A DNA stretch of 64,000 bases from Psammoneis japonica (GCA_008632985.1 QPGO01000143.1:1-64000); one strand, 5' to 3'; positions 12,401 to 51,249 are shown, counted from the first letter of the stretch. Numbers and translations: made by a program. The notes: a model not told the origin generated them from the letters alone.

Positions 12401-14410
12401 TTTGGTTCACATGCGGCTGGAACACATCGGCACAGAAGTGTGCAGACAGAAGGAATGAAGGAAGCGAGCAAAAGGAGATGAAAAGGGGCAATGGCAATGG
12501 CAACAGCAACAAGAAAAAGGAGCTGCAAAAAGAAAGATGGCCATGACGGAGGGTCAGGAGGCCACTTTGGGAGGTGCAGCAAAGAGCTGCCACATCCAAA
12601 AAGGAGTGCCATTGCTGCACACATCACAATCATCATTGGTTTCATTTGTTGCAGCGGCTGCTGTTTTTGCACTCATGGCTGTCTGTGTGTGCCACACAGG
12701 AATGAGAAATGTGCGTGCTTGGCTGTCGTGCACATCTGTCACATGTCACATCTATGCCAAATCTTGGTGACAACGCCATTTGGCATTTGGCTCATTGAAC
12801 AAAAACCACCACAGCCACGCACTTTTCCCATGCTTCCTTTCTCTCCAAGCGACACTTTTTTGACACTTGAAGCTGGTCGCCGCAAGAATCTTGGGGACAA
12901 ACACTGCCAATCCCCACTCACATGCTTCTTGCAAGTCACCAACTCTTTTCTTGGCAAGTGCCTCTTCTACATTTGCTGTGCTTTCCCACCAAATCTTGTC
13001 AGCAGCCACTGCATCACTCCGTTTCCTTTTCTTTCCTTTCCCTTTGCCACGGCTTTCTTTTTTGATCCTTTTTTGTTCAACAATCTTCTTCTTTTCAATT
13101 TCTTTTGCATCATCCTCTGGCAGCCATGTGTCATCATCTTCTCCTTCGTTGTCATCAACAAAATCAAATGTGCCCACTTTCCTTCTTGCTGCTGCCTTGC
13201 GTTCCACCTTTGCACCATCACACACCCAACACAATTTCACTCTGTCCACACCACATGGCTGCTGTGCAAAACACTTCCTGCATTTCCAAGTTTTTCCTTC
13301 ACCTTTTTCAGCACTGTTCACTGTCACATTCTTCACATCAACTCCTTTCTTGAGTGCACTTTCCATTCTCTTTATTTGCATTTTGGTTCTCAACTTCTTC
13401 CTCTTTGAAGCCACCTCTTGCCAATGTTGACGCATCTTGAATTTTGCTCTGACATGTTTTGACATTTGCTTCAAATCAAACACAGGCAAAACTGATGGCA
13501 CTCCAAACACAATGGGCTTGTTCCATCCTTCTGCAAATGTTTGAACTCTGTCATGCAATGACGCCGCATCACTCTAAACAGGATGCAAAAAATGGGCACC
13601 ACCGGAGTCAGAGCTGATCGGACCACCTTCCTTTCTTCCCGCTCTCTCTCTCTCTCTTTTGCTCCTTTTTCAATCTCTCAATTTCTTCACAATTCTTTCT
13701 TTCCTCCCTTCCTCTCTTCTTGTCCTTCTCTCCCTCGTTTCGTCCATCTCTGTTGTTTTCCATCACATCGTCATCAGAAACACTGCTCCTGGTTTGTTTT
13801 GGAAACACTCCAGTGCTTTGCTTTTGAAACACTCCAAAACTTCCTGCCATCATTTTTGCGATCACTTGCATGTGCACATCATTCATTGTGATGCCCCTGC
13901 CCTTGAGTGCTTTTGCAACAGTGCTCTTCCACTGTGAAAATGAACATGTCTGCGACACTCCCAATGTCTTTTCTGCATGGCTCCCATTTGAACATCCCCT
14001 TTCCCAATGTTTTTTCTCCCCTTTGTTTCTTTTTTTTTGCCAGCTGCGCCACTTTGACGTGCAGCACATTTTCTTTGTTCTCCCCCCTTTCATTGCTTTG
14101 ACTGATGCATCTCCATTGCCCCATGACCATCACCTGTGACACCGCCAACCAACAATCATCTCGCCCATGTTTCTGGACATCTCTTCTCACCGATCATGCA
14201 TCTTGCCCCCTGCAACACTGCCGCCCAATCCCCAATTTTCCTCCTCCCGCATCCATGGCCGTCGAAGAAGTCTGCCATCCTGCACATCTAATCTGTCACA
14301 TCTTCTGTGCTGTGCACTGCCTTCTGTACCTGCCCACCTGCAGCACCCATGTCCTGTGCACTCACGTAGAATCAGCACTGGAGCCCACTGAGCATGCTGC
14401 AGATCGAAGC
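6431..14410. mobile_element. Long TpA/CpG-depleted tract of degenerate repeat/TE and gene remnants, unclassifiable
   Basis: Near absence of TA. Internal duplications (7200-7290 vs 7362-7475; gattggttgaggaaag at ~11644 and ~11788). A Lys/Asp/Glu-rich remnant ORF at 12752-13558 (-). No convincing domain recognised. Confidence 0.45.
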
Positions 14411-18867: not shown

Positions 18868-19138
18868 ACTATCTATATTGATTCAGAGAGCTGTACGGCG
18901 CATGTGAATCTATCGCAAAGCCACTTTCTCGCAACAACGTGCACTGCTGTGATTGCTAATAGGTGGAGTAGGAAACGACCGGCAAAGAGTAGCAGCATCC
19001 CAAGCCAAAAAAATTGCGACATCAACCGATAACAAATTAATCTGTAATCCTCGTGGAAGCAAGCACGAAAACTATCCTTTTGGCTTCGACTGCCTCTTGA
19101 ATGTGTTCTGGACACTGATTAACATGTCAATTTGCTCT

Positions 19139-20020
19139 TTACCATCCTTTCCTTTCAATCGACTTCTCTATCGTCTTGAACCCATCGGGATCAATCGTAG
19201 TAACGGCAACCTCCACGGTCCCATCCTCCTTTATTGCCTTTTCTGTGGTCTTTTCCGTCATCTTCTTGGATCCAACTTTTTCGGAACTGTTAAGGGCATC
19301 ACTGGACAGCTGTTCCAGTTTCCGGCGCAGCGCCTTTACAGAAGCAGTGTCCCTGGGCTTGACCTCTAGACAGCTCCTGTGATTGTGTTCTTGGGGGTTG
19401 CCTCGCTTTTGCGGATTCCAAAACAATTGCCATTCTCCACCTGTCTTCTGGCCATGACAGCACCCTCCAGAGCAGTGCCTCCAAACAAGTCCTTGGCAAC
19501 GGCACAGCTGAGGTCTCTGCCGACTCCACGGTTGCCATTGCACACAGCAAGATCCAGTTCTCCTGTCTGATGGGACCTGCTGCGGCCAACACACTGCACC
19601 TCCCAACTTGATGACCTGCCATTCCTGCAAACGTCTCCAAGGTGGAATTGTCCATGAGGAGAATGAGAATGTTGGCCAGTTGAGTGCCTGCAACAAATCC
19701 TCCTCTCACCCCACCCATTCCCACATGGCAGAGGGATCAGACCCACTTGCATTGTCATTGCACTTCATGAGGACCCCTGTGGTCCCCATGTTGCCTGTGA
19801 AGATGAAACCCTCCCACCTTGACATTCTGGATGAGGACAATGCAACATCAGCTTTGGACATTTGCAAGAAGTGCAGAAGGAGAGAAATCAGCAATTTTGG
19901 TTGTGAGAAGCAAGCAAACTCATGGGTCACCAAGAGTTGCTGGGGGTCAAGCACCTGCATCAACACATGGTTGGTGTTGTCAATCATTCCTTGCATGTTG
20001 GCACCCGTTGCTCTTGTCAC
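19139..20020 (-). pseudogene. Inverted, degraded paralog of the Ysc84/SYLF gene at 36805-37725
   Basis: MQGMIDNTNHVL, MGMGGVRGGFVAGTQLANILILLMD and KTIEKSIERKG match the + copy. The intron is retained, there are frameshifts, and homology extends into the 3' flank (18920 ~ 37950). Confidence 0.88.
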
Positions 20021-21446
20021 TTGCTTGTGTCTTAAAATTGCAATGCCATCGCATCTTGCAGATGGAACTCTGAGGCAAGTTGCACTGTGAATGGTGTGAA
20101 AAGTGAAAACCAAGTCAGAACATGGGTGAGAGAGCTCCCAACATGGGAGGTCCTGCATCCTGCTGCACAAGAGCAAAGACAGTGTGTTTTGTTTGGATTT
20201 GAGGTTTGAGGACAAGCAGGAGGTTGCACCAGTGCCACAGTTGTTCTGGCCAAGGGTTTCAAATTGGGGGGGGGGGGCACTTGCCAAGCATCTTGTCAAT
20301 GACTTCTTCATGCTGTTGAATCAGCCAGGTCTCTGCACTGTCCAAACCATCTTGGTGCATGGCATCTGGTGAGGATGGAGATGTTTGGGGTTCAACTGAG
20401 TCCACACACATGGTTTTTTTTCATGCGGGGCACCCCTTCATGCAATTGATTGTCCCAGACTTTTGCTTCTTGTGAGGAAGAGCTGCACAGGTTGCAACAA
20501 GCTTGCACAATGCATTTGTGCAACATCATGTTTTCATGCAGCCCATTTGTCATTGCAGTTGCTGCCACTGCCAAAAACAAAGCAATTTTGTGATGGGTGG
20601 GGACAAGGGCATGCCAAATCATGAAGTCACTCAGTGTTGCAGTCATTTAAAAGCAGAAAAAGTTGACCAGATGTCAAGGAGTGCAAAAAACAATTTTTCT
20701 AAAGTCTGCAATGACCAAATTACAAAAACACTGGGGTGAGTGGGAGGTCAAAGATTCCAGTGCAGTGGCAACAAAGCTGAGAGCCTTGGCAAAGAAGTGT
20801 CATCACAAAAAATGCAAGGTTCCTAAATTTTTCACTGAACGTCCTGCTTCTTGTTGACAAGTGGTGTTTGACAAGTGGCTGGACATTGTCAAGAAAATTT
20901 TGGCACCTGAGACTCAACATTGCTGGCAAAAAGTTGCTGCAGCTGTGCAGCCAACTGGCACATGCAGTGCTGTTGGTGGAGAAAATGAAAGACATGCTTG
21001 CAGAGTGATGTTGAAAGAGAAGGATGAATGCTGGCAGTGAGTGGTTTCTGTGGAAGGCAGGGTTCTGCAGAGTGAGTGCTGCCAGCTGCTGCAGCAACAC
21101 TTCTTGAAGATGAAGCCAACAACAAAATGCCAGCCTTGCAGCTTTAGAATTGCCAGGGAAGTTGAACAGCATGGCAAGATGCTGTTGAGCTCACAGCAAA
21201 CTTCTCAAGAGTGCTCTTTTCAACAAAAGATTTTTGCCTTGCATTTGACCCCCAACATTGCCAGAAGAGCTGACACACAGGGTTGGTGCAAAGTTGGTTG
21301 CTGAGAGCAGGAAAAAGAGCCTTGTTTGTGTCCATTGTTCTGCAAAACTCTTTGCACACAAGAAAGAGGCCACAGAGCCAGAGTGAAAGAAGAGGAGCAG
21401 AGGTTCACTGTGCAGAAATCACAACTCAAAATGTGCCTTGGAGCCT

Positions 21447-21750
21447 TGTCGCGGAACATGACTCAGGCGGGACTCAGATGATTGGGTCCCGTTCACGAAT
21501 GAAGAGTCACGTGGTTTCTGGTCACAAGAATCACGGCGAACCGGGATGTTTGCGATCCAGGGACGATGGTCCCCCGTGATGTTTGACGTGACGTTTGGAC
21601 GTGTTACTTTGAGTTTGACAGGACTGTAATTCAGAAGAAGTAGAAAAGTAGATTATAATTTAGCGAGAGTGAGAAAAGTGAAGACTATTAATTTTAGTTT
21701 TGTGTGCTACTGACAAGGTGTTAGTAGTATCGGCATCTGGTTGTCCAACA
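21447..21750 (+). repeat. Copia 5' LTR
   Basis: tgtcgcggaac...ttgtccaaca, matches 26921-27224. Confidence 0.97.
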
Positions 21751-21809
21751 CGATATATATCGACAGTTTGTGGCAACACTACATTCGAGAGTAGTAAGTG
21801 AGAGAAGCG

Positions 21810-24800
21810 ATGAGCAAGGAAGAACAGACCTACGAGACTTCTTTGTCGTGGAGCGGCAAGAGAGAAGACTTCGAGAATTTTTTGGTGAAATTCGAGGCAT
21901 TCGAGAGCGACCACGGTTGTGACGAAGCAACCGATGTGGATCTAGGAGATAAGCTTCTCACCAAGGCGGAATACGTGAATGGAAAGAAGAAAGTAACGCA
22001 AGCTAATGGTGCAGAGACCGAAGAAGACCTCACAAAGGAGGATAAGAGGTTGTACAAGCTGAACGCGAAATCATTTTCGAAGATCATCCGTGCGTTGCCT
22101 GAAAACTTGATCAAGGCCTGCAAGAACCAAGGTGGACCCAAGAAGTCCGTTTATTTGATCAAGGAGTACCTCAAGAAACACTACTCGGAGCAGAATGTGG
22201 TAGATGATTACCAAAACCTCTACAAGAAGAGGTTGGAGCTAGAACCTGGAGAGTTCGAGATAGCGCTGTTCTATTTCAACGAGTTGGAGGATATTAACTC
22301 CAAGTTGGGAAAGATTGATGAAAAGTATCGCTTAGATGAGCTTCAGTTGAAGACTGATATCTATTCAAAAGTCCCGGATCAAGGTAACTGGTCCTCTTTC
22401 AAGTCCGAGTATCGCAAGGACGGCGCGATGGAGAACATTGCCTACAGTGCGTTCAAGCAGCACTATGAACGGGAGTGGAAAGCTCATGGTCCACCAGGAG
22501 GATCTACTACATCTATAGATCGATCTTCTGGAGAGGATAAGACCCTAACTATGAAGGTACAGGGTAGCAAGTTTTTCCCGGGTAATTGTGGGAAGTGTGG
22601 CAAGAAAGGTCACAAGTCAAAATTTTGTCCTGACAAGAAGAACGCCAAGACGAAGAAATTCGATGGCGATTGCTTTTATTGCGGCAAGCATGGACATAGA
22701 GCGAGCGACTGCTTCAAGAAGAAGAAGGATGAAAAGGAGAAAGACGAAGAAACGAACGAGGTTACACTCGGAGTGTTCGATTCCGTCGACTTGGTTGAGG
22801 AGGGTAAGGACCCTATTCCAGACTCCTTCTTCGATACCTTCGATACTAAGCCTGCAGTTCGAGACGATGAGTTCGAGAGAGAGCTTAAGAGGTGGGATAC
22901 TCGGTCTGGACTGGGTTACGGCTACGATAGTAGCGGCGAACGCGCGCTGTCATGGTACGAATGGAGCGAGATGGCGGACGATGAGGACGAAGAAGACGAT
23001 GACGGCATGAGCATGCCGGAGCTAGAAGGTCCTTTTGTTTCTGATAAGGTCGAGGATGAAAGTATCCCGCCCTTGGAACCGCGGTATGATTCCGACAGCG
23101 ATTCGGATGATGACGAGTCATTAGAGCTGATCGGCTCTCAACGCAAGTGCTCCAACTGTGACGGGCCTGGACATGTCTATCGAGGCTATCGCACAACGAA
23201 GAAAGTTCAAGACGAGGACAAGGGAGACGAGGAAGACAGTATCCCGCCCTTAGTATCTCGTGGCGGTTATGATAGCGACTCGAGCGATGACGAGTCGGTT
23301 GAATTCGAGGTTGTTTGCTCGTATTGCGGACAGCCTGGACACGAATTCTGCACTCCTTTCCAAGAGTTTTGGAATAACCCGGATGAAGAGAGCGATGATG
23401 ACAGTATTCCGACTCTAGAGAGTGGTATGGACTCGGATAGTGATTCAGAGTCCGAGTTTGATTACGATTCGGACGACGACTATGACGAAACACTGATGTC
23501 CGGTGCGCAGTATGAACCAGAACGTGGCGGTGTAAGGCTACTATTGGACTCTGGCTCGACAGCACATACAAAGAGGTCTGCTGAAGGGATGCGGAACCTC
23601 AGGGAAGTGAACAAAGTCATGAAGGACGCACACGACGGGAGTTCGGTAGCGAAGCTCCAAGGAGATTTTCCATTTACGCGTCAGAATGGGGACGGTACAG
23701 TAGTTATTACTGAGATGTACGTCCAGCCAAATTTTTCACATAACATTGTGAGTCTGACGAAGCTATTTGAGAAAAATTGCAAGCTGAGTCCGACGACTGA
23801 TCCCAAACGAGCCATTGTTCTCGAGTGCCCTGATGGCACGGAATTAATTTTCGAAAAATCAGCGAAAGATGGGCTGTTTTATATGGAAGTTGACTCGCTG
23901 ACGGATGTGTCCGAAATGACCGCAGACGTTTCCGATGGACAGAAATCTGGACAAAAAGAGTCGGACAAGAAAGTCCATGTTAACCGCGCACACATTTTGC
24001 TGAACCACATGGGGGAACGCGCGATGAAAATGGCGGCAGCAGATCTCGGTTGGAAATTGACCGGTGTGCCGAAGACTTGCGAGTTCTGTGTCAAGGCAAA
24101 GGCTACAGCAAAGCCAACCGTGAAGGCTAGCGATAAGAAAGCGACCAAGCCTGGTCAGCGGCTCTACCTAGACACGTCAGGACCATGCAAAGCGACGCGC
24201 GGCAAGAATCGACATCATGTGATGATGGTCGATCAACTTACAGATCGACTTTGGTCGATGTTCCAAGCGAAGAAAAATGGTTTTACGGACGATGTCAAAG
24301 CTTTATTGACTAAGCTGAAGGGTCAGGGGCACCCAGTCGAGTTCTTACGGATCGACAACGCTCCGGAATGGGGTGCACTCAAGCCAATTTGTGATGAGCA
24401 TGGGATCACGATCGAGCACACCTCCCCTGATGCTCCGCAGTTCAACGCGGCAGTCAAGAGAGCGTTCCCAACAGTGCGTAATGTGGCACACGCGGTGCTG
24501 AAAGCATCCGATTTCGACGACGCAGAGCAAAGTCGGCAATGGGCGAATGCGCTGCAGGACTGCACCATCGTTCGTAACTTGGTCCCACGTGGGGACTGGA
24601 GCAATGCTTGTGAACCATTTGGAGAAAAGCCACCCGTAAAAGCCGAAGACCTGGTAGAGTTTGGCGCAAAGGGGTGGATGGCCAAGAGAAACAAGATCAT
24701 GGCCAAGTTTCAAGATCGTGCCGAGGAGGTTCGTCGCGCAGGATACGCTGAGAATCACTCGAGCGATGCGTACATTGTTCAAAAGTTGTCAAATCGTCGT

Positions 24801-27053
24801 TGTGTGTTGACACGCGACGTGGCATGGGAGTCTAAAAGACGATGTGATCACCCAGACCCCGAGACATTGGTCGAAAAGCAAACTCCGCGAGCAACTTGGG
24901 CGGACGACGCAAGACCGTCAACAGTGGTTGAAGAGATGTCACGCCCCTCTCAGTCATCCGCAGACGACCCCGACTTTCATGATTCTCATTCACAAATTGA
25001 GGAGGGAGAAGAGAGTGCAACAGACGGCGAGGAATCAACGGATGGCGAAGAAAGTGACTCCGAGATGGGTGCGCCACCTGACGGACCAGGACAGACGGAC
25101 AAAGAATCAGCTGTGAACAGTCGATTGGAACGCGAGTTGAGCAAGCTGAGGACTTCTTATGACCCAGCTGGTCTCCCAAGCAACGACGAGGACGAGGTAG
25201 AAGCGGTGAATGTGGTCGCAGGACATGTTGATCCGAAGAATGATCACGAAGCGATGACAGGCGACGAAGCTGACGAGTGGTGGAAGGGTCTGGTCACAGA
25301 ATGCGATGGATTTTTCGACTTGAGAACTTGGATGCTGGTCAAGGAAGCCGAATTGAAAGGTAAAAAGACATCCAAGCCGCTGTCAACGAAGAACGTCTAC
25401 AAAAAGAAATTACACGCGACAACAAAAGAGGTGCGGCATCGCGTGCGCAACTGCACTCGGGGGTTCGACATGACACCCGGAGTTCATTTCGATGAATCTT
25501 TTGCACCTGCTCCGACGGATCATACTGTGAGACTCACATTGGCGACATCATCATGGATGCTGGAACAGTTGGAAGTCGATGATGTCGACGAAGCCGAGAA
25601 GGAGTGGATTGTCGGGCATTTGTTCGATGTTGTGCAGGCATTTCTGAACTCAGAGATGACTGGACCACCTGCACATGTGCATCTTCCCCCTATGTGGAAG
25701 GAGTGTTGCGAATATAAAGGTTGGGAATACAACGAGAACGATCTTATTTTGCTCGGAAAGGCGCAACATGGGCAAGTCGATGCCGCGAAGCGCTGGATTG
25801 ATGTGTTTGTCGGAATCATGACTGAAAAGGGTGGCGTCGAGCTTAAACGAAGCAAGACTGACCCTTGTGTGTTGTACCGTCATGATGACAAGGGGCAATT
25901 GGAGATTATCATTTTGATTTATGTGGACGATGGTTTCATATGTGGGAGGCCGGAAGTCGTTAAGGAAGCCAAGGACTATTTGGCGAAGAGAGTTAAGATA
26001 CTGGACATTGGACGAATCGACACTCATTTAGGAATTGATTATGAGTTGAAGAAAGACGAACACGGTTGGTACTTCGAGTGCAGTATGCGCAAGTACGTGG
26101 AAAAGATGGTTGCGGAGTACGAACAACGCTTCAACAAGACACTTAAGGATTACGAGACACCTGGGGAGCCAGGGAAGATATTGATGAAGGCGGACGAAGA
26201 CCATGAGCCGGTCGAGCAAAACGGATATCGAGCCTTCGTCGGAAAGATCCTATATGCGATGTTGAAGGTCTTACCTGATTGCGCGAATGCGATTAGAGCG
26301 CTGACAATGCATTTGACGAATCCAACTAAGGATCACTGGCACGCGCTGGACAGACTTATGGGACATCTGAAATTTCACTATCAGCCGTTGAAGTTGAGGT
26401 CACCTTTGGAATTAAGGAGCATAGGGATATTCGACGCTGAGTGGGGGACGGACAAGAATGACAGAAAGAGCATTTCGAGTGACATTTCCACACTGGGCGG
26501 TACGTCGTTAACTAATTGGCAATCGAAGAAGCAGACCTCTGTGGCGCTGAGCAGTTGTGAAAGTGAGACCATAGCGGGCACGGCGTGCGCGCAGAGCATA
26601 CAATTCCAGAATCATTTATTGGAAGAGCTGGTAGGTACGGACATGTTGAAGATGCCGAGTTATGCGTACGGAGACAACGCCGCATCACTGTTTCTGGCTG
26701 TTAACAACCAAGTGGGACAGCGGACGAAACACATTCACATTCGTGATAGACATTTGGGCGAGTTGGTTCAACGTGGAGAAATTGAACCACGCCATGTCAG
26801 TGCGGAGAAGAACCCGGCAGATGTCAACACCAAGAACGCGAAGATCGAAACGCACAAGAGACTAGCTCAGAACCTGCATGACGGATTCGTGATGGTTGAA
26901 CCGGAACCAATCAAGGAGGGTGTCGCGGAACATGACTCAGGCGGGACTCAGATGATTGGGCCCCGTTCACGAATGAAGAGTCGCGTGGTTTCTGGTCACA
27001 AGAATCACGGCGAACCGGGATGTTTGCGATCCAGGGACGATGGTCCCCCGTGA
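21810..27053 (+). CDS. Copia Gag-Pol polyprotein (zinc knuckles, protease, integrase, RT, RNase H)
   Basis: Two CCHC knuckles (CGKCGKKGHKSKFC, CFYCGKHGHRASDC); LLDSGSTAH; H..LNH...CEFC, LYLDTSGP, LRIDNAPE; IYVDDG; WQSKKQTSVALSSCESE, RTKHI. Order PR-INT-RT-RH. Confidence 0.95.
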   Translation: MSKEEQTYETSLSWSGKREDFENFLVKFEAFESDHGCDEATDVDLGDKLLTKAEYVNGKKKVTQANGAETEEDLTKEDKRLYKLNAKSFSKIIRALPENLIKACKNQGGPKKSVYLIKEYLKKHYSEQNVVDDYQNLYKKRLELEPGEFEIALFYFNELEDINSKLGKIDEKYRLDELQLKTDIYSKVPDQGNWSSFKSEYRKDGAMENIAYSAFKQHYEREWKAHGPPGGSTTSIDRSSGEDKTLTMKVQGSKFFPGNCGKCGKKGHKSKFCPDKKNAKTKKFDGDCFYCGKHGHRASDCFKKKKDEKEKDEETNEVTLGVFDSVDLVEEGKDPIPDSFFDTFDTKPAVRDDEFERELKRWDTRSGLGYGYDSSGERALSWYEWSEMADDEDEEDDDGMSMPELEGPFVSDKVEDESIPPLEPRYDSDSDSDDDESLELIGSQRKCSNCDGPGHVYRGYRTTKKVQDEDKGDEEDSIPPLVSRGGYDSDSSDDESVEFEVVCSYCGQPGHEFCTPFQEFWNNPDEESDDDSIPTLESGMDSDSDSESEFDYDSDDDYDETLMSGAQYEPERGGVRLLLDSGSTAHTKRSAEGMRNLREVNKVMKDAHDGSSVAKLQGDFPFTRQNGDGTVVITEMYVQPNFSHNIVSLTKLFEKNCKLSPTTDPKRAIVLECPDGTELIFEKSAKDGLFYMEVDSLTDVSEMTADVSDGQKSGQKESDKKVHVNRAHILLNHMGERAMKMAAADLGWKLTGVPKTCEFCVKAKATAKPTVKASDKKATKPGQRLYLDTSGPCKATRGKNRHHVMMVDQLTDRLWSMFQAKKNGFTDDVKALLTKLKGQGHPVEFLRIDNAPEWGALKPICDEHGITIEHTSPDAPQFNAAVKRAFPTVRNVAHAVLKASDFDDAEQSRQWANALQDCTIVRNLVPRGDWSNACEPFGEKPPVKAEDLVEFGAKGWMAKRNKIMAKFQDRAEEVRRAGYAENHSSDAYIVQKLSNRRCVLTRDVAWESKRRCDHPDPETLVEKQTPRATWADDARPSTVVEEMSRPSQSSADDPDFHDSHSQIEEGEESATDGEESTDGEESDSEMGAPPDGPGQTDKESAVNSRLERELSKLRTSYDPAGLPSNDEDEVEAVNVVAGHVDPKNDHEAMTGDEADEWWKGLVTECDGFFDLRTWMLVKEAELKGKKTSKPLSTKNVYKKKLHATTKEVRHRVRNCTRGFDMTPGVHFDESFAPAPTDHTVRLTLATSSWMLEQLEVDDVDEAEKEWIVGHLFDVVQAFLNSEMTGPPAHVHLPPMWKECCEYKGWEYNENDLILLGKAQHGQVDAAKRWIDVFVGIMTEKGGVELKRSKTDPCVLYRHDDKGQLEIIILIYVDDGFICGRPEVVKEAKDYLAKRVKILDIGRIDTHLGIDYELKKDEHGWYFECSMRKYVEKMVAEYEQRFNKTLKDYETPGEPGKILMKADEDHEPVEQNGYRAFVGKILYAMLKVLPDCANAIRALTMHLTNPTKDHWHALDRLMGHLKFHYQPLKLRSPLELRSIGIFDAEWGTDKNDRKSISSDISTLGGTSLTNWQSKKQTSVALSSCESETIAGTACAQSIQFQNHLLEELVGTDMLKMPSYAYGDNAASLFLAVNNQVGQRTKHIHIRDRHLGELVQRGEIEPRHVSAEKNPADVNTKNAKIETHKRLAQNLHDGFVMVEPEPIKEGVAEHDSGGTQMIGPRSRMKSRVVSGHKNHGEPGCLRSRDDGPP

Positions 27054-27224
27054 TGTTTGACGTGACGTTTGGACGTGTTGCTTTGAGTTTGACAGGACTG
27101 CAATTCAGAAGAAGTGGAAAAGCAGATTGTGATTTAGCGAGAGTGAGAAAAGTGAAGACTGTCAATTTTAGTTTTGTGTGCCACTGACAAGGTGTCAGCA
27201 GTGTCGGCATCTGGTTGTCCAACA
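26921..27224 (+). repeat. Copia 3' LTR (TpA-mutated)
   Basis: 14 differences from the 5' LTR by manual alignment, 12 of them TA>TG/CA. Confidence 0.97.
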
Positions 27225-27787
27225 GAGCCTGTTGAAATGACAGCCACTGACAATGAAGTGAAGGTGTTGCAAGTGTTGGCAGCAGGAACGTGCAAACTGT
27301 GGCTCAAGAGCTCCTTTCTACGAGACGAGGGTGCAGCAACACAAACAGATCCAGAAGCTGAAAGGCGGGTGGTGAAGAAAAAGACAGGCAACTCCAAAAG
27401 AAAGCAAAATGCCTTGCAGTTGGTTGCAGCATGCAACTGTGCCAAAGAGAGAGCTCATGGAGCCAGGGTGCAGGTCCCACCACCCGCTGCTCTTCAAGAT
27501 CCTCAAGAGACCCCTGCCTCTCCTCGGAAACAAGGTGCTCTGGCTGCTGCACAAAAAGCAGATGTTCGTTGGCTGTCATCGTCACGGGCAAATTTGGAAA
27601 GGCAGTCCACATCATGTTTCTGCGCAGACCTGCCGGCAATTTCTCGCGAACACCGGTGCCAAATTTCATGCACATGAATTTGCTGGTGTCTGAGCATTTT
27701 CTTCATTGTTGCGAACGCTGGGGAGTGATGCGTTGCCCAACTCCAAATTGCGCCATGATTGACACGGCCAAAAAGTGAATCTCCACC

Positions 27788-29836
<2,049 letters not shown>

Positions 29837-33199: not shown

Positions 33200-34731
33200 A
33201 TGGCAACGTATTGGTATCTTCCTCGCTTGTTGGACAATAACGATGGTGAAAATGAAGACATAGCCCCCTATTGGGTACCACTAGTAGTTCTGGGCGTTTG
33301 TTTGGTTATCATGTGCATCTGGTGTTGTTATTGCTTGCCAAAGTACGCGGCACCCACCATCATTCCTTCTCAACAAGAAGGAGCAGCGGGAGGAATAATG
33401 GCCCAAGGCGAAAGTCTTTCCTCATTACCGCCACCAAGGAGGACGAGTGAGCAGATAATGTTGGAGTCTGCGACAGCCGTTGGAAATATTTGGAGGCCAG
33501 TGACATCGAAGTTCACTCTTTTTTTCGGAGTCAATGTATTGATGCTCACTGGAATGCAGTTGAACTTTGAGGCTACCGCTATTGTACTGTTGATTTTCGT
33601 ATCTTCTTGCTTCTTATATGGAAGATTCACTGACTTGATCTTGATGATTCCTTTGAAAAAAGAAAACATAGCCAAAGCAGAGGGTACCGATCATCACGTC
33701 AGGGCAGATACGCAACCACCAAATCCCTTTCGACTTTCTACGGACCAAATATTTGGTCCGCAGTACGTAACTATAGGGGGTGCTCCGCCTACTCTTCAAA
33801 CTGATAACATCTTCAATGATTTTGGATCAGATCTTTCGACTTCACTGCTCCTTGCGGCGACGCAAATAACGCTTCTTGTCATATATGTTTGGGGTGTGTA
33901 CGACCAGGGTAGGCCTGACTTCAGTGATAAACAGGTGTATGCCTTCTATTGGCTGGGAATCTTCGTCCAGATATCGTATGTTATTGGCAACGATCTCACG
34001 GCAAAGATAGTCGACAACAGGGCATTCTGGATTAATGTTCTTGCAGTATCACAGTCACGAGGACATAGCACCTACACATACACATGTGAGAGAGAGAGGT
34101 CTCTTGGAAGGAGAAGTTTCTTTCATCGTTTAGAGACGGTTCGGCAGTGACGGCACTATTATATCCCAGTGCTGAACCGCAGTCGGAGGTTGAACTCAAA
34201 CAGATCAGGTCGCAGCTGCGCCTTCGATATCTTCTGGATCGGCTAGTCAACGAAGTTGGGCTCTTTATTCTAATGCTCAGCTTGCCTGTTCAGCTGTCGG
34301 CAAGTGATGGACCTGTTGATTTTGTCCTCAACGCGGTTGCTGCTTTCTTCGTGATTGAGCTGGACGATAGAGATTCTGTGGAATACAATCTTAAGGTTCC
34401 CCAGAAAGATGAACGCAAAGAAGAAAGAAGCATTGTTCTTCCTGCAATCAAGGACAGGAGCAGAGACCCACCAGGTGAATGTGCTTCGGCTTTTTACGTT
34501 GTCAAGATTGACAAGGACGACGTTCCCGTTGAGCACAAATGTCAAGATGATAATTCTGCACCTCCCGTGATCGACAAACCATCCGAAGCAAATGAAGAAG
34601 AGTTTGCAGAAGCAGAGAAGTCAGAAGAAGAGAAACGTGAAGAGGAGAATGAAGAAGAGGAGAACGCAGAACAGTGGCAATCTTGCAGCAGTGACATGTC
34701 TTTCATGCGGGGCGCCCCTTCATGCAATTGA
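33200..34731 (+). CDS. Multi-pass membrane protein of unknown function, in two frames (intron or frameshift near 34100-34150)
   Basis: Consecutive ORFs 33200-34150 and 34147-34731 with TM segments, DFVLNAVAAFFVIELDD and an acidic tail. Confidence 0.6.
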
Positions 34732-36320
34732 TTGTCCCAGACTTTGCTTCTTGTGAGGAAGAGCTACACAGGTTGCAACAACCTTGTAAAATGCATTTTT
34801 AACATCACGTTTTCGTGTAGCCTATTTATCGTTGCAGTCGCTGCCACTGCAGAGGACGAAGCAATTTTGTGACTGGCGGGGACAAGGGCACGTCGAATGA
34901 TGAAATCACTCAGCGTTGCGGTCGTTGAAGCAGAAATAAAAGCTGACCAGATGCCGAGGAGTGCAAAAGACAAATTTTCTGCATGACCAAACAACAGAAA
35001 CACCTGGGTCTCTTAGAACTGGGATTTTCACCCCCCCCCCNCCCCCCCCCCCAAAGAAATGATGTCTGATCTGAGTGCTCATTGCAGCCTCCTGAGTTTC
35101 TCACATTTTGCTCATTGGCATCATCTTTGTCATCCAAGGCATCAGGTGAAAGCAATTTTGAGGTCCATGTTGATGGTGCCTGATGGGTCTTGTTGGCTGC
35201 TGGATGTGTGTCATGGACTGGCTTGCTTTTTGGCAGCAGAGTGTGTGGAACATTTTGTTTGGTGGAAGAACAACACATGATTGTCAATGCCATCTTTCCA
35301 GACATGCACAACATCTCAAATTCCGAGCGACTGCTTGCAAAAAGTTGCCAAAGCCACACAGTTGACTGGCAGCATGTGCGGCGCTGTTGTTGGCAATGAA
35401 AGACATGCTTGCAGCAATGTAAAAAAGAAGGATGAAGACATGTGGGCAGAGGCTGGTGTCAGTGGAAGGCAGGTTTCTGCACTCCAGAGTGAGTGCCCAC
35501 CAGCTGTGCGTGGCCAGAGACTTGGCTGGAGACAGAGCCAGTGGTGCCAACCTTGCTTTTTTGGGGGGTGCCAGGGCTCTTGAGCAGTGTCACAAGGTGC
35601 TGCTGTTGAGCTCACAGCAAACTTTCCAAGAGCAGTCCTTCAAAAAAGAAAGACCCTTGCTTGCCATCATCAACACGAACGAGCCTGTCGATGAAGTGGC
35701 AGCATGGTCACCCAAAAAGGAGCTCCAACATGTGGCCCAATGATGTTGCCAGAAGAGCTGGCATGCATGGCTGATGCAAAGTTGGTTGCCATGAACAAAG
35801 GCAAAAGATCCTTGTTTGTGTCCACCATTCCACAAGAAGACTCTTTGCACAAAGAGCGCTCCTGGCTCCACCGCCAAGAGCCACAGAGTGAAAGTGGAGA
35901 GAGGAGCAGAAGTGCGCCACACACAAATCAAAGCTCAAATGTGCCTTGGAGCCTGCTGTGAGGTGGAAGCCACTGATGATGAAACAAAGGTGTCACAAAT
36001 GTTGGAAGTGGGTGCATGCACGCTGCGGCTCAAGAGAGCTGCTCTGCGAAAAGAGGGCACAGCACAACAAAGAGAGAGACCCAGAAGTTGAAAGAGGCGG
36101 CCCCGGGTGGGTGCAGAAAAAGACGAGCAATTCCAAGAAAGTGAAATGCTTTGCAGTTGGTTGCAGCACACACCTGTGCCAAAGAGACCTCATGGAGCCA
36201 GGGCGCAGGCGCCCCACCTCAAGATCCTTTGGACGACCTCCTCAGAAACAAGAAGGTGCTGTTGTTGCTCTGGCTGCACTGGCTCAGAAGCCAACAAGAA
36301 GGTGCTCTGGCTGCTGGAAA
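34704..36320 (+). repeat. Uninterrupted partner of the duplicated segment at 20420-21446 plus 27231-27560, TpA-depleted
   Basis: Patchy colinear similarity; includes a fragment of the SNF2 gene 3' end at ~34941-35160. Confidence 0.8.
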
Positions 36321-36804
36321 AAAGATTTGTTGGCTCATTTTTGGCAAATTTGGCAAGAAGTTTGGTTCAATGAACTCCATTTGTTGTCATTGTGTAGTTT
36401 GTTGCGTGCGGCGAGTGCTGTGTGTTGGTTGACATCCGCCGTGCACAAACTGCGGCAGAGGGGCGTACAGTACGTTGTGACGGGCTTTTCGCTTTCGCGC
36501 GCTCGCTCGCTATGCACATTGAAGTGTGGCGTAAGCGAAGGAAAACCGTTGACAATGTTGATTTTAAAGAATCTTCGAGGATAAAGAGTCGTGCAAATGA
36601 TCGTGTAGAGGCCGGCTTCCAGGTTCAACTTCGGCCTCATTCTTTTGTGCAATATCTCAAATCGGCGAGTGAAGAGTGAAGTTGTTTCGTTCCTTGCAGT
36701 TTTCATGCCATTCACCAACATTCACAGAGCATATTTTGCCAGAGAGTTCATCTGCCAGATACGCAGCATTTTGGTTTTAAAACAAACAAACGACTACTGC
36801 AACA

Positions 36805-37725: not shown

Positions 37726-38365
37726 TAAAGAGCAACGTGAAATGGTAATCTGTGTTCAGAACCCAATCAAGTGGCAGTCGAAGTCGAAAGGATAGTTTTC
37801 GTGCACGAGGATTACAGAGCAATTCATTATTTGCGAGTAAGATAGGTTGATGTCGTTTTTTGTTTGGGCTACTGCTACTTTTTCCCGGCGGTTTCCTATT
37901 CTACCTATTACATATCATAGCAGTGCTGGTTATTTCGAGAAAGTGGCTTTGCGGTAGATGCATGTTTACCGTAGGATACCGACAAAGAAATAGTGGAAGT
38001 AGAGAAAGTTGACCAGATGCCAAGACGTACAGCAGATAGATTTTCTGAAATCCGTTCGGTAATGATAAATCAAGAAGAACAATTGAGTCCCTATGAAGTT
38101 TGTTCCCCTGTTTGATTTTCAATCACAAAAAGAAACCATGTCTGATGCAAATGCTCATTGTAGTCGCCTGATCGCACATAAGATGCGGATCCAGCTCAGA
38201 AGACTCTGTGGCTGCTGCCTTGGCATTTTCGTCTCCAGCTGCGGTGTTTCACAGTAACACCCCCTTATTGAAAATGTGGTTGTTGAAGCTTCTATCCTTA
38301 CCCCAGTCCCCCGTCGTAGTGTTTGAGGCTCTACAACTACACTGCTGCAAATATAATCAACCACA

Positions 38366-45940: not shown

Positions 45941-48900
45941 TGAAATAAACTTCTGTGTCACAATTGCATCATCAGCTGCAAGATTCGGGAGATTCGAATG
46001 ACCGGGATTGTTGACACCTCAAAGAAATTCTGTGACAGAAGCCCAAACACTGTGGCTGCAGTCAATCGCAGCTTTTCCCACAATTTTTAGAAAGCAATCG
46101 TGGACAACTTGTCAAGACAGTTCACTGTGATCACACTGTGTCTTGTTCTTTCCTTCTCTTTTCTTTGCTGTGCATCCCTTGCCTCAAACGCAATGTCAGC
46201 ATTTGGTGAGAGCCTTGTTGAGAGCACCATGCTTTGTGTGATGCAAACCAACCTTCAAGCATGGAGATTTGGACAAAGTGAAACTTGTGCAGAGCTGTGA
46301 TGATGGTGCTAAGAAACAGAAAATGTGCCCTCAGTTCACTGGCAAGCACGGCATCGAGTGCTTGCTCTGCACTGCAGAGCACTTTGAAAACTGCGCCAAG
46401 CATTTGGGTTGTGATGAAGGACCTGAAAAATTTGCCCATTTTGAAGAAGTGTTAGAAGACAATGCTCAAGACGTGTGGAGCAATTTGGTTTCAGGTGTCA
46501 CGGAAGCAGATCGGACGATGGTCAGGTTTGACGTGAAATCACACGCTTTCATCAGCAACACTGCAATCATCAAGCACGTGATGCAATGTTTGAATTTTTG
46601 AAAAACTTTTCTAAACCCTTTGGTGATTCTCCTTGCGAGCATGCCAACAGGATGATTCAAATGTCACACCATGCCAATGAGCTGCCAGGAACTGAACCTT
46701 TGCTCAATGAGCAACAGATCAAGAATGACACATTCACGGGCATGCCGATGACGTGGAAACAGAATTGCATGCATGCTGGAAAGGACATCAGCACTGATTC
46801 TTTGGAGGACATCATTCAACATGTGTCCAACAAGAAAGGATTTGCTGATCAGAAGAATTCTGGCAAGCCTGATGATGATTCCAAGAAGCGCAAGGCTGGA
46901 GATGTGGATTCCACCGGGAACAAGAAGAAATTTGGTCCCGACTCTTGCTGCCGATTGCACAAAGATTCTGCAGCACCTCATTTGTGGCAAAATTGCAGGG
47001 AGAATCTCAAGAGTCCCAACTGCAATCCAAATCCTCATTTTCAGAGAGGTGGCTGAGGTTTGCCAAGTGCAGGCCAAGATGCAGGTTGTGGACGAGGTCG
47101 TAATCTGCATCCAGGCCAAGGAAATCATGGAGGCCGATTTTGTGGTCCTCAGAACACCAACTGTGCTGGACGTGGATGTGGTGATGGTGGATGTGCCCCA
47201 ACTGATGGTTTTGGGCGTGGTCAAGGTGGACATGACCGTGGTTACAACCAAAACAGTGTGGGCCGAGGATGCGGTCCACAGAATTTGCCTCAGAATTTTT
47301 GTGCGAATCAAAATCAGGTGCAGAGCGGTTCAGAAGAACCAAATGCTCATCTGGCTTGATGAGCTCCTCTGACTGATGCTCAGTCACAAGAATGGGGTGC
47401 AGATGTGCGCCATTTTGACACAGCAGGCTGTGGTCCGCCAGGAGGTCCTGACGAGATGTCAGGAGGAGCGGATGTCGGACAAGGTCCACATCCAGGAGAG
47501 GACCTGGATTGTGGTCCAGTTTGGAGTGCTGCTCCAGTCCTGGTGTCAGCTTTGAAGTTAACAATGCCATTGCCATTGACACAAATGCACCAATTGAATG
47601 CGAACCTTCACATGACACACATTCATTGCATGGAATTGAAATCGATGGCGCGAAAAATCAAGAAGAGCTGACAGGATTGAATTGTGCTGGCATGCCAGCA
47701 CCCAAAGCAAAAAGCATGAATCCCAACATGGCACCCACATCAGTCCTTGCATGTGAACAAATGAATGGAGCTCACTTTTCTCATTTGTTGAGAGCATTGT
47801 TTGATTCAGGCAGTGCGACTGCTCTCATTCACGAGCGATGTTTGGCACGTGGATCCACTCCAAGCCTGCTCAAGAAGACAGTGGCATGTGACACAGCTGC
47901 AGGACCAATGAAGAGCAACAGAACACTTGGTTTAGAGATGACAGTGTCACCTGAATTTGACAGGTCAAGGAGCATTGATTTTCAGAGAGCTCTGGCATTT
48001 CAAACGCCGTGTTGTTACGACGTGATTCTTGGATCGGATTTTTTGACCAAGCGGGAATTGATGTGAATTTTTCTTCATGGACAGTCAAATGGTTAGACAA
48101 GTCTACACCTGTGAAAGAACTCACCTTTTGGGACAATGCAGAGAATGCTTGTTTGCTCTTGCAGGTCCAGAAGTCAAAGAAGAAGAAATCGATGAGATCG
48201 AGTTCCACGCATTTGCTGCGCAAATTCTGGACGCCAAGCATGTGAATCGGTGTCTCTGGAAGAAGTGGCTAAGAGGCAAACACACCTGTCAAGAGAACAA
48301 CAGTTGGAGTTGCAGCAAGTGCTGGCCAAGTTCCCAAAAGCATTTGATGGAAAGCTGGGTCGACATCCACACAAATTGGTTCATCTGGAAATCGATCCCA
48401 ACGCGATTCCGGTTCATGCTCGACCGCACTCGGTTCCGAAGGTTCATGAAGAAGTTTTAAAAAAGGAGCTTCGGCATCTGGTCCAAATGGGAGTGTTGAG
48501 GCCTTGTGGTCCCACTCATTGGGCATCTCCTTCGTTTGTCATTCCCCAAAAGTGTCAACGAGTGCGATGGGCATCCGATTTTTGCACGCTCAACAAGGCG
48601 CTGAAGAGGTCAATCTATCCTCTGCCAAGAATTCAAGACATTGTTAAAAAGAGAAAGGGATGCAAGCATTTCGCCAAGCTGGATCTGTCCATGTTCCATT
48701 GTGCTTTAGAGCTGGATGAAGAGCCCAAGGAGCTGTGCACTGTTGTCACTCCTTGTGGCAAGTTTCAATGTTGTCGACTCGCGATGGGTTTGAAGCTGGC
48801 GGCAGACATTGCTCAAGCGGTTGTTGAAGAAGTGATGAGTGAGATTGACATGGATTGCTTTGTTGATGATGTTGGTCTCTTCTCAATGGTTTGGTCAGAA

Positions 48901-51249
48901 CATCTAGCCATGTTGAGTGCCACATTGCAACGTCTGGAACAAAACGGTTTGAAGGTGAATCGCTTGAGTGCAAATGGGCCATTCAGGAGACCAATTTCTT
49001 GGGATGTTGGATGACTCCAGAAGGTGTTAAACCTTGGAAGAAAAAGGTACAAGCAGTGCTCAAGCTTGCTCCTCCTAAGAACCACACACAACTCAGATCC
49101 TTTGTTGGAGCCGTCACTTGCTGTCATGACATGTGGCCTCGGCGATCTCACGTTTTGGCACCATTGATGGATTTAACCGGAAAACAACACTTTGAGTGGA
49201 CTCCAGCTTGTCAGAAGGCCTTTGAAGAGATCAAGGCCATTGTGGTGGGCAACGCATTGCTCGCTTGTCCTGATCACAACCTTCCTTTTCAGATTTGCAC
49301 AGATGCAAGCGACTGTCAGCTTGGTGCCGTTGTCACACAGAACGGCAAGCTGATCGCTTGTTGGTCCTGAAAACTGAACGCAGCTCAGAAGAATCACTCC
49401 ACCATGGAAAAAGAAATGCTTGCTGCGGTTCTTTGTTTCAAGGAGTTCCAATCTATGTTGTTGGAGCTGAAACAACAGCTCACACGGATCATAAGAACTT
49501 GACCTTCAAGACGCTTAACACGCAACGAGTGCTCGCTGGCACCTTTTCCTGAAGAATTTGCACCCAAGTTTGGACATGTCAAAGGCAAAGAGAACATCCC
49601 AGCTGATTTCTTTTCACAATTTCCTCATGTGGAGAAAACTGTGGAAGGGAAGAGATCTTCTAAAGTGGAGTCGAAAGGTGCTGTTGTGGATTTTTCAGTT
49701 CTTCTGACTGCCATGGCTCCAGAAGATGAGTCGCTCGAAGAAAATTTGTGCCCTGAATTGAACACTCCATTCTGCACTGTTCAAGATCAAGAATTGGTGG
49801 ATTGCTTTTTGAGTTGTCTGAGTCTAGAAGAGATGCAACACCCTCTGAATTACCCTGACATGCAAAGGTTTCAATTCAAAGATTATGAGCTAAATCAGGA
49901 GCGGCAGAAGAATCCATTTCGTTTTCCGACTTGACACATTGGCGGGGCTCCTTTAATTTGTTGGAGGCCTGAAGTCAATGCACAAGAGAACGATTGGAAA
50001 ATTGCTTTACCAACTGCCTTGTTGGCATCTGTTGTCAGGTGGCATCATCAAGTTTTGGGGCACTGTGGCACACAAAAGCTCTGTCACACGATTCGCTCAC
50101 ATTGTCACCATCCGTCGTTGCGCCGATTGGTCGAAAATTGTCGCTGTCATGCATGCCGAAGAAACAAGCTCTGGGGAGCTGGATGTGGTTGCTTGCCACC
50201 AAGAGAAGCCCCTTTAGTTCCTTGGGATGAAGTGGCTGTTGATTCAATTGGCCCTTGGAAAACATGAGTGCAAGAACAAGAAGTCAAATTTAATGCGTTG
50301 ACTGCGATTGACACTGTTTCCAACCTTGTTGAATTGGCTCGCATTGACAACAAGACTTCAGATCATGTGCAGATGAAGTTTGCCAATTGTTGGTCAGCCA
50401 GATGTCCAAAACCAAACCGTTGCATCCATGACAAGGGCAGCAAATTCATTGGTGAGCCATTTCAGATTCTCTTGGCGAAGGCTGGAATCAAGGATGTGTG
50501 GAAACAACTGCCAGAAATCCTCAAGCTGATGCCATTTCTTGCAAAAGAATGCATCAAACAGCTGGCAACATCATTGAACTACAGTCAGAGGACATCCTCC
50601 TTATAATGTGATGGAAGCTCAGCAGATTGTTGACAACACATTGGCCACAACCATGCACGGTCTACGATGCGCCACTTCAAGAGTCTTGGGAATTTTGCCA
50701 GGAGCTCTCATCTGCCAAAGAGTCATGTTTCTTGATTTGCCTCTCATTGTAGATTCAATCGCCATTCGAGTTTGTTGGCAAGTGTTGATTGATGACAACT
50801 TACGTCGGCAAAATCTCAAAAGACGCTTTTTCGACTGTCGTGTCGGGCAGCAAATTTTGGTTGGGACAGATGATCCCACTGAGTTGGAAGAAAGATCTTT
50901 TGGCCCTTTTCCCATCACACAGATTCATGTGAATGGAAACGTCACCATACAAAGAGCACCTCATGTGTTTGAAAGAATCAACATTCAGCGCATTCTGCCG
51001 TATCGACTTCGACATGGATTGCGATTCTTCAAAGCATTCGCATGAATCGCGGAAGGGAAGAGTGAAGTAAACTTCTACGTCATAATTACGTCATCAGCTG
51101 CAAGATTCGGGAGATTCGAATGACCGGGATTGTGTTGACACCTCGAAGAAATTCTGCGACAGAAGCCCGAACACTGTGGCTGTAGTCAATCGTAGCTTTT
51201 CCCATAATTTTTTAGAAAGTAATCGTGGACAACTTATCAAGACCGTTCA
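45941..51249 (+). mobile_element. Ty3/Gypsy LTR retrotransposon, degenerate (frameshifts, stops, Tyr>Cys/His)
   Basis: LTRs 45941-46124 and 51063-51249 (TG...CA); PPT ggaagggaagag; protease LFDSGS; RT WASP, DF..LN, YPLPRI, CFVDDV; RNase H CTDASDCQLGAV, HTDHKNL; integrase LGHCG, VAVDSIGP. Order PR-RT-RH-INT. TSD imperfect (GAACA/GAACT). Confidence 0.95.

Follow-up and report, generated by a model that had tools for sequence, protein, structure and literature searches.

The DNA considered here, called the window below, is a stretch of 64,000 nucleotides from Psammoneis japonica (GCA_008632985.1, QPGO01000143.1:1-64000), given as one strand from 5' to 3'. It carries a Ty1/copia retrotransposon (Copia) at 21447-27224, whose two long terminal repeats (LTRs) differ almost only at the dinucleotide TpA, and the element lies in a mosaic of blocks that differ strongly in TpA content. 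We call a TpA site converted where CA or TG stands in its place. The features of the element and of its insertion site are as follows.

21441..21446, + strand: left target-site duplication GAGCCT, with a matching hexamer 3' of the 3' LTR and a single copy in the uninterrupted paralogue
21447..21750, + strand: 5' LTR, 304 bp, unconverted, with 14 TpA including a TATAA motif at columns 208-212
21810..27053, + strand: Copia polyprotein open reading frame (ORF) of 1,747 amino acids, open, with zf-CCHC, Pol_BBD, SH3_retrovirus and RVT_2 domains and with derived missense changes at conserved residues
24000..25800, + strand: partly converted internal patch, including the TpA-sparse stretch of this copy (24066-25767) that holds 20 of the 22 internal TA>CA/TG sites described below
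26913..26920, + strand: AAGGAGGG, read directly 5' of the 3' LTR and, from its resemblance, probably a polypurine tract
26921..27224, + strand: 3' LTR, 304 bp, converted, with CA (6) or TG (6) at 12 of 14 TpA sites and two TpA left
27225..27230, + strand: right target-site duplication GAGCCT, as read from the sequence
34701..36218, + strand: uninterrupted paralogue of the Copia target, 70-83% identical to the flanks and used as an empty-site reference

Both LTRs have TGT...ACA ends and stand in direct orientation. These direct, TG...CA-ended repeats, the short target-site duplication, an RVT_2-type reverse transcriptase and an integrase located 5' of it assign the element to Ty1/copia. In a profile search of the polyprotein, RVT_2 matched residues 1184-1438 (E = 6.9e-22), with Pol_BBD at residues 578-657 and SH3_retrovirus at 945-1006 upstream of it. 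The same search gave no match to the rve profile in the polyprotein; the residues of the invariant columns H728, H733, C757, C760, D788, D849 and E883 align with homologues that bear PF00665. No stop codon interrupts the 1,747-codon frame, and tyrosine makes up 1.2% of residues in the 24.0-25.8 kb patch versus 2.7% over the whole ORF. The frame extends 133 nt into the 3' LTR (26921-27053) and ends there at TGA.

GAGCCT occurs as a single copy in the uninterrupted target paralogue, at about 35.95 kb. Contigs of three runs, X1, X2 and X3, all from one sample, were aligned to 20400-28300 at 85% likeness; such contigs drop rare variants, and none from X3 was placed on this region. One X1 contig connects 21440 to 27225 with six letters shared, and represents either an insertion-free allele or a close paralogue of the target. 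The Copia family is multi-copy, with summed contig depths of approximately 200-800 over the element versus 37-130 in the flanks.

Alignment of the two LTRs gave 14 differences in 304 bp, all of them transitions and none a transversion, and every one has T or A in the 5' LTR and C or G in the 3' LTR (P = 1.2e-4 for this one-sidedness). Twelve of the 14 differences set TA in the 5' LTR against CA or TG in the 3' LTR. TpA accounts for only 28 of the 166 A/T bases in the 5' LTR, which gives a probability of 3.4e-8 for at least 12 such differences in 14. Expressed per site, 12 of 14 TpA sites were changed versus 2 of 138 other A/T bases of the same age. Outcomes at the 14 TpA sites of the 5' LTR were evenly divided between the strands, with six CA, six TG, no CG and two TA, and both of the surviving TpA are found in TTTAG. 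The remaining two differences are GGTCC/GGCCC at column 41 and CACG/CGCG at column 63; both have a 5' purine beside the T (G-T-C, and G-T-G on the opposite strand), and columns 64-304 are without any non-TpA difference. CpG counts are 17 in the 5' LTR and 18 in the 3' LTR, and all 17 shared CpGs are intact. LTR divergence is 4.6% with the TpA sites and 0.66% without them, a sevenfold inflation.

A preliminary description of this locus, made from the sequence of the window, had already given the exact coordinates of both LTRs, counted 12 of 14 differences as TA versus TG/CA and noted that CpGs are retained in both LTRs, and our alignment reproduced these statements. Its proposals that the change is much faster than background mutation and that it inflates LTR-based dating are borne out by the rates and divergences above. 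The description also placed all of the changes in the 3' LTR. The differences are indeed one-sided in 14 of 14 cases, but the one at column 63 may equally well stem from the ordinary decay of a CpG in the 5' LTR, in which case the changes in the 3' LTR would number 13.

The differences cluster in columns 159-283 because TpA is present only there. The first 158 nt of both LTRs (21447-21604 and 26921-27078) contain no TpA, with about five expected (P ~0.007). This suggests that the family lineage underwent partial TpA erasure before this insertion, and hypermutated copies would therefore still be able to transpose.

The direction of change was examined at internal sites of the element. We inspected 40 of 678 variant sites between this copy and the contigs, 30 of them inside the element and none in the LTRs. 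At 22 of these 30 sites this copy has CA (11) or TG (11), while all or nearly all contigs have TA. The other eight comprise two sites with CA here and CG in the contigs, one reverse case (TA here, CA in the contigs), three transversions and two other transitions. The amino acid is altered at 16 of the 22 sites, and changes of residue were polarised by aligning the polyprotein with nine homologues of 22-53% identity. At seven residues the family state is also the outgroup state, and the residue of this copy is found in none of the nine homologues:

residue 793: Cys in this copy, Tyr in family contigs, Tyr in four and Phe in two homologues
residue 802: His in this copy, Tyr in family contigs, Tyr in seven and Phe in two homologues
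residue 892: Val in this copy, Met in family contigs, Met in the three closest homologues
residue 977: Ala in this copy, Val in family contigs, Val, Ile or Leu in nine homologues
residue 987: Ala in this copy, Thr in family contigs, Thr in five homologues
residue 1248: Ser in this copy, Leu in family contigs, Leu in six homologues
residue 1320: His in this copy, Tyr in family contigs, Tyr in nine homologues

Residues 806, 874 and 1012 lean in the same direction, and four others are uninformative. A CpG-type change at residue 883, with Glu in all nine homologues and Lys here, is also derived. On the evidence of these alignments, the direction at internal sites of this Copia copy runs from TA to CA or TG. 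From the internal sites and three hints we infer the same direction at the 12 LTR sites. The first hint is that the 5' LTR received the contigs in which an LTR end continues into foreign flanking sequence (both X1 and X2 have loose ends at 21750), the second is a summed depth of 800 on the 5' LTR bin versus 213 on the 3' LTR bin, and the third is the TATAA motif, which is present in the 5' LTR only.

Loss of TpA extends far beyond the element. Using a 750-bp sliding measure of the observed-to-expected ratio (O/E), 29,250 of the 64,000 bp have a TpA O/E below 0.2. The composition of the three classes of blocks is:

TpA and CpG depleted blocks, 19,000 bp: O/E of TA 0.05, CG 0.14, CA 1.91, TG 1.75
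TpA depleted, CpG kept blocks, 10,250 bp: O/E of TA 0.09, CG 0.53, CA 1.59, TG 1.67
normal blocks, 26,500 bp: O/E of TA 0.63, CG 0.95, CA 1.17, TG 1.17

Dinucleotide statistics calculated per kb likewise show large blocks at a TpA O/E of 0.00-0.09, usually with a CpG O/E of 0.03-0.25 and CA+TG of about 1.7-2.1. The longest gap without any TA is 1,238 bp (ln P of about -55 at the normal-block density of 0.044 TpA per bp), and block boundaries are sharp. Among 500-bp bins, 41 are low in both TpA and CpG, 20 are low in TpA only and none is low in CpG only, which indicates that TpA loss precedes CpG loss.

Within the window the depletion is regionally confined, with genes in TpA-normal blocks and with repeats, relics and non-coding DNA in depleted blocks. 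Host genes of the normal blocks are long single ORFs and include a BBE/FAD oxidase, a formate/nitrite transporter, a sulfotransferase, a SNF2-RING helicase and an alpha/beta hydrolase. Among named sequences, the transporter gene is closest to those of the raphid pennate diatoms Nitzschia, Epithemia and Amphora (45-56% identity). A fungus with RIP (repeat-induced point mutation) and a dinoflagellate were both considered as host and set aside in view of the dinucleotide statistics, the gene content, these relatives and the outgroup comparison. The young Copia itself is a normal block, and less-converted repeat copies (15.2-17.1 kb and 37.0-38.0 kb) as well as intergenic spacers also belong to normal blocks with ordinary TpA. 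No recognisable genes were found in the depleted blocks of the 64-kb window except retroelement relics (RVT_1, RT_RNaseH_2) and a DUF6824 ORF. Tyrosine is at 0-0.6% in ORFs of depleted blocks versus 1.9-3.8% in host genes, since a TpA-free frame is unable to encode it, while His and Cys are raised.

Two depleted domains flank the Copia element:

19501..21250, no strand: left flank, old repeat DNA, TpA and CpG depleted
27001..29250, no strand: TpA depleted, CpG kept domain that holds the 3' LTR, the right flank and the Tyr-poor DUF6824 ORF

The 3' LTR is located at the edge of the 27.0-29.25 kb domain, and the 5' LTR adjoins the old, fully depleted block. The DUF6824 ORF next to the 3' LTR (27779-28861) is TpA-poor with 0.6% Tyr and has kept its CpGs; compared with its single homologue (P0196), one Tyr/His column has the expected direction and one the opposite. 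At 28205-28267 a second contig population (depth 26.6/70.8 in X1 and 10.5/10.5 in X2) has TA at five and CG at two sites where the window has CA/TG, and may stem from a less-converted allele or from a paralogue. A perfect (GT)241 microsatellite of 482 bp (29090-29572, 100% matches), which ends at a single N (29572), marks the border between this domain and a normal genic block.

As composition controls we used 77 Copia-bearing metagenome contigs that stem from other hosts, and none has a 1-kb window with a TpA O/E below 0.17; these loci, obtained by a profile-based scan of metagenome contigs, are distant from the present element and serve for composition only. No copies of the same Copia family were found in a first scan of metagenome contigs. 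Three of the 77 loci (L022, L039 and L072) have a composition like that left by repeat-induced point mutation (RIP), with TpA O/E of 1.17-1.29 and CA+TG of 0.56-0.84. These three, presumably fungal, mirror the window.

Depleted DNA has paralogues within the window that still carry TA and CG at matching sites. In these repeat pairs TA is conserved at 34% and CG at 38% of sites, versus 60-77% for the eight further dinucleotide classes that we tabulated, and lost TA and lost CG are alike replaced almost only by CA/TG. Six strongly asymmetric pairs were compared from the TpA-richer to the TpA-poorer copy. The T>C rate was 0.36 at TpA versus 0.051 at TC, 0.075 at TG and 0.048 at TT, and the C>T rate was 0.31 at CpG versus 0.047-0.068 in other contexts. 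TpA became CA in 53 cases and TG in 48, with a single double change to CG.

The context of the TpA sites in these pairs was also informative. TpA is conserved in the partner at 18% of RTAY sites (n=22), 29% of mixed sites (n=143) and 55% of YTAR sites (n=33), and in mixed contexts the changed strand has a 5' purine before the T in 61 of 79 cases. The surviving TpA of depleted blocks show an excess of CTAA/TTAG (4.6x), TTAA (3.4x) and CTAG (2.3x) and a deficit of ATAT (0), ATAC/GTAT (0.06) and GTAC (0.11). Judged from these alignments, the unit of specificity is R-T-A>R-C-A, equivalently T-A-Y>T-G-Y, and it is strand-symmetric. Among surviving CpGs in depleted blocks, loss is heaviest in TCGA (survival ratio 0.19) and lightest in CCGC/GCGG (1.91).

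A second, degraded element of the Ty3/gypsy type was found in the window:

45941..46124, + strand: left LTR-like repeat, in a depleted block
48196..49370, + strand: RVT_1 and RT_RNaseH_2 remnants, with 0.4% Tyr in the RVT_1 ORF
51063..51249, + strand: right LTR-like repeat, at the edge of a normal genic block, with 10 TpA and 11 CpG

This LTR pair is likewise one-sided, the left copy having CA/TG at 8 of the partner's 10 TpA and at 5 of its 11 CpG. The window also contains an old segmental paralogy, in which 18905-20110 is inverted relative to 36699-37962 and 20419-21446 together with 27242-27484 is direct relative to 34701-36218; its copies (18905-21446 and 27242-27484 versus 34701-37962) show unequal TpA/CpG loss. 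Between 8 and 12 kb, the TpA/CpG-free DNA is purine-rich on the + strand (GC skew +0.28 to +0.41, AT skew up to +0.36), and at 13-14 kb the skew is reversed (GC skew -0.41, AT skew -0.30). Long spurious ORFs at 8001-14000 gave no Pfam match. An assembly gap of 264 N (44636-44899) lies inside the largest depleted block, and single Ns are located at 29572 and 35041.

The further claims of the preliminary description, its post-insertional timing of the change among them, also hold up. The direction TA>CA/TG agrees with the seven outgroup-polarised internal residues, with the LTR sites themselves following by inference. That TpA loss is faster than CpG decay agrees with the loss of none of the 17 shared LTR CpGs and with the 20 bins low in TpA only versus none low in CpG only. 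The perfect GAGCCT duplication is intact at both ends and single in the empty-site paralogue. The region-wide, repeat-directed scale of the process and the option of RIP in the opposite direction go beyond what that description had considered.

We consider it likely that a host process which erases TpA, is directed at repeats and mutates integrated DNA locally at a very high rate explains this pattern. Such a process would turn TpA into CpA or TpG through T:A>C:G transitions on either strand, targeting repeats and silent DNA while sparing neighbouring genes. It would prefer a T with a 5' purine (R-T-A, or T-A-Y on the other strand), and RTAY sites would therefore be lost first and YTAR sites last. 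TpA erasure would run ahead of, and independently from, a slower loss of methylated CpG. Copia would have inserted recently, with LTRs identical at that time, and afterwards the 3' LTR (12 of 14 TpA) and the coding patch would have been converted while the 5' LTR was left alone. Our confidence that the 3' LTR was altered in place is somewhat lower than our confidence in the process as a whole. Three observations place the change at the DNA level: it is found on both strands, it extends to flanks outside retroelements, and it sets the two LTRs apart. The process is presumably enzymatic. The ORF could remain open while conserved residues were lost because TA>CA/TG cannot make stop codons and destroys TAG and all Tyr codons.

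One possible chemistry, suggested by analogy, is deamination of adenine to hypoxanthine at 5'-TA-3' by a DNA-acting ADAT2/TadA-like deaminase, a proposal on which our own judgement is evenly divided. The natural substrate of TadA is a U-A-C anticodon loop, of which the T-A-Y preference is reminiscent. Oxidation of the TpA thymine by a TET/JBP-type enzyme, leaving a base that mispairs with G, seems rather unlikely, and some other chemistry only a little less so. Error-prone repair of the Pol-eta type (WA>WG) was rejected by reasoning, since transversions are absent, AA>AG is not in excess and 86% saturation is implausible for polymerase errors. Cytosine deamination of the APOBEC type was rejected for its wrong direction.

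A similar signature has been described in the chlorarachniophyte Bigelowiella natans. According to the main text of a preprint on mutation-accumulation lines (Mettrop et al., bioRxiv 10.64898/2026.01.13.699255), two regions of integrated viral DNA mutate at approximately 6e-7 per site per generation, in some lines only, with changes that are almost exclusively A>G/T>C and all on TpA. The same text reports TpA-poor, CpA+TpG-rich clusters and coding sequences enriched for reverse transcriptase and DDE domains, and proposes an ADAT2-like DNA adenine deaminase. Every testable defining feature given there was also found in the present case, which looks like a similar process. In both, A>G/T>C changes on TpA give TpG or CpA depending on the strand (here 14 of 14 transitions, 12 of 14 on TpA), the changes are confined to foreign or mobile regions and lie far above background there (here 12/14 TpA versus 2/138), long-term TpA depletion accompanies CpA/TpG enrichment (here O/E of TA 0.05-0.09, CA 1.59-1.91 and TG 1.67-1.75), and the process is patchy or facultative (some lines only versus one LTR and one patch).

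There are also differences from B. natans as described in that text. The host there is a rhizarian, while the host here is diatom-like, with long single-ORF, intron-poor genes. Targets here are LTR retrotransposons and old repeats instead of giant-virus and virophage inserts, and depletion reaches an O/E of about 0.05 over tens of kb compared to a Rho of 0.45 in the nucleocytoplasmic large DNA virus region of B. natans. Mutation was measured in real time there and is deduced from sequence comparison here. The R-T-A/RTAY preference, the precedence over CpG decay and the effect on an LTR pair do not appear in the main text of the preprint. Our full-text literature searches turned up no account of TpA being lost from diatom repeats, and the only organism for which they gave the signature was B. 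natans.

Two other systems share some of these properties. In dinoflagellates, the cited sections of PMC11572971 describe 5-hydroxymethyluracil made by a TET/JBP thymidine hydroxylase, which prefers T in TA and TC, is found on repeats and silences transposons. This TA/TC preference resembles the 12 changes at TpA and one at TpC seen here, and both hosts are SAR (stramenopile, alveolate and rhizarian) lineages; unlike the present signature, the dinoflagellate modification is an epigenetic mark for which those sections report no mutational outcome. LTR elements of diatoms are CpG-methylated according to the part of PMC2806351 that concerns them. Decay of methylated CpG is similarly repeat-directed and transition-only, gives CA/TG and shares blocks with TpA loss here (CpG O/E 0.14), but the 17 CpGs shared by the LTR pair are all intact, and CpG decay acts after TpA loss.

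Several observations weigh against the process proposed here. Identical LTRs only 5.4 kb apart were treated differently, and the converted patch is discontinuous, with 25.9-26.9 kb unconverted. The polarity of the LTR sites is indirect, and the family state is taken from contigs of one sample, perhaps the sample from which the window itself was assembled. Residues 841 and 1028, two of the 16 altered residues, lean weakly in the opposite direction. At the listed internal sites no contig carries the letters of this copy, as an assembly artefact would also predict; private letters of a single copy would be missing because contigs drop rare variants. Adenine deamination and thymine oxidation predict an identical double-strand signature and are inseparable from sequence alone. 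Finally, a single 64-kb window was examined.

The main rival explanation for the LTR pair is ectopic gene conversion or recombination, in which the 3' LTR, perhaps together with the 24.0-25.8 kb patch, was copied from an already hypermutated copy of the family. We regard this as unlikely, though it has several points in its favour: the family is multi-copy by contig depth, the unconverted 25.9-26.9 kb between two converted parts gives a patchy pattern and, by reasoning, hypermutated copies that keep open frames would persist as possible donors. Such a donor would have to match this copy otherwise, since non-TpA differences number only two over the 304 bp and are absent from columns 64-304, and the GAGCCT duplication is intact. 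Moreover, the non-Copia flank at 27.2-29.25 kb has likewise lost TpA while keeping CpG, as would fit a local domain and not an imported tract. Gene conversion would in any case still require an underlying process that erases TpA.

An error of assembly or consensus is considerably less probable. Here the 3' LTR and the patch would be chimeric, or unpolished long reads would have been miscalled at modified bases. Repeats are difficult to polish and the window has N gaps, in addition to the letters missing from contigs mentioned above. A 748-nt X1 contig with a k-mer depth of 37 matches the TpA/CpG-free flank with no differences, and the signature recurs in diverged paralogues that can be assembled uniquely. 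Miscalls on two strands should often yield CG or keep TA, and the LTR outcomes given above (no CG, two TA) do not have this form. A chimeric assembly of the 3' LTR in particular keeps a small probability.

It is very improbable that the 3' LTR is ancestral and that the 5' LTR gained TpA by RIP-like cytosine deamination, C>T at CpA in the style of Neurospora. Twelve of the 14 LTR differences do fit the CpA/TpA pair, and since CpA/TpG takes up 54 of the 152 C/G bases in the 3' LTR, the probability of at least 12 in 14 is 1.7e-4. Many diatoms also encode DNMT4, related to fungal RID according to the relevant part of PMC9998398, but its chemistry would yield the wrong direction: outgroup-polarised sites of this copy run TA>CA/TG, and old repeats at a TpA O/E of 0.05 with CA/TG at 1.75-1.91 are the reverse of RIP products. 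Fungal RIP is recognised by C>T/G>A changes with TpA enriched and by mutation of both copies with creation of stop codons, and here one repeat of two is altered and the 1,747 codons contain no stop. As a system, the present process resembles RIP of Ascomycota in being dinucleotide-specific, strand-symmetric, transition-only, repeat-hitting and gene-sparing, in using the CpA/TpA pair and in blurring families and distorting dating. It differs in that TpA>CpA replaces CpA>TpA, and so TpA is lost where RIP accumulates it and GC content goes up where RIP lowers it; stop codons disappear where RIP introduces them, only one of two identical repeats is altered and the host is not a fungus.

Equally hard to sustain is a uniform, genome-wide neutral bias of mutation at TpA, without targeting, in which selection keeps TpA in genes. 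TpA-normal blocks do coincide largely with genes, and TpA is under-represented in normal blocks too (O/E 0.63). Such a bias would not make two LTRs of the same age and sequence differ 12 to 0 (P = 1.2e-4), nor would it leave less-converted repeats and intergenic spacers with ordinary TpA in normal blocks that have sharp boundaries.

RNA editing by ADAR-type enzymes changes A to G with a preference for a 5' U/T, similar to the TpA signature, and edited retroelement copies are reportedly found in animals. Editing of element transcripts fixed through reverse transcription is nevertheless the least credible of these explanations. A new insertion receives its two LTRs from a single template, and editing therefore cannot make them differ. 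Reverse transcription uses sense RNA only, which would confine A>G to the transcribed strand, and yet the changes are strand-symmetric (6:6 in the LTR, 11:11 internally and 53:48 in the repeat pairs). A pyrimidine is preferred on the 3' side (TAY), with TAG/TAA contexts surviving, and DNA of the non-retroelement flank is also affected.

A broader possibility, which we put forward tentatively and on which we would hesitate to rely, is that rhizarian and stramenopile algae share a dedicated, chromatin- or repeat-guided DNA-editing defence that erases TpA, in effect RIP in reverse. Its R-T-A/T-A-Y specificity would point to a DNA-acting adenine deaminase of the TadA/ADAT type or to a thymine oxidase. 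It would have been active within the lifetime of a still-polymorphic insertion, would act before CpG methylation decay, possibly priming it, and nearly half of the genome's non-genic DNA would have been rewritten by it.

Several practical consequences would follow for the analysis of such genomes. LTR-divergence dating is inflated about sevenfold in the present case. Where TAG and Tyr codons are removed and stops are never created, an open frame cannot be taken to show that an element is active, and this misleads annotation of intact elements. TpA-free, Tyr-free ORFs are liable to over-calling as genes, and both RIP indices and CpG-based methylation proxies will misread these genomes. The case also offers a same-age control in the form of two LTRs, a motif (R-T-A, YTAR being resistant) and a temporal sequence (loss of TpA followed by that of CpG), all of which a candidate enzyme must reproduce. 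If the interpretation is true, TpA-directed hypermutation would be a major genome-shaping force in a second, ecologically dominant algal lineage, acting there on ordinary retrotransposons.

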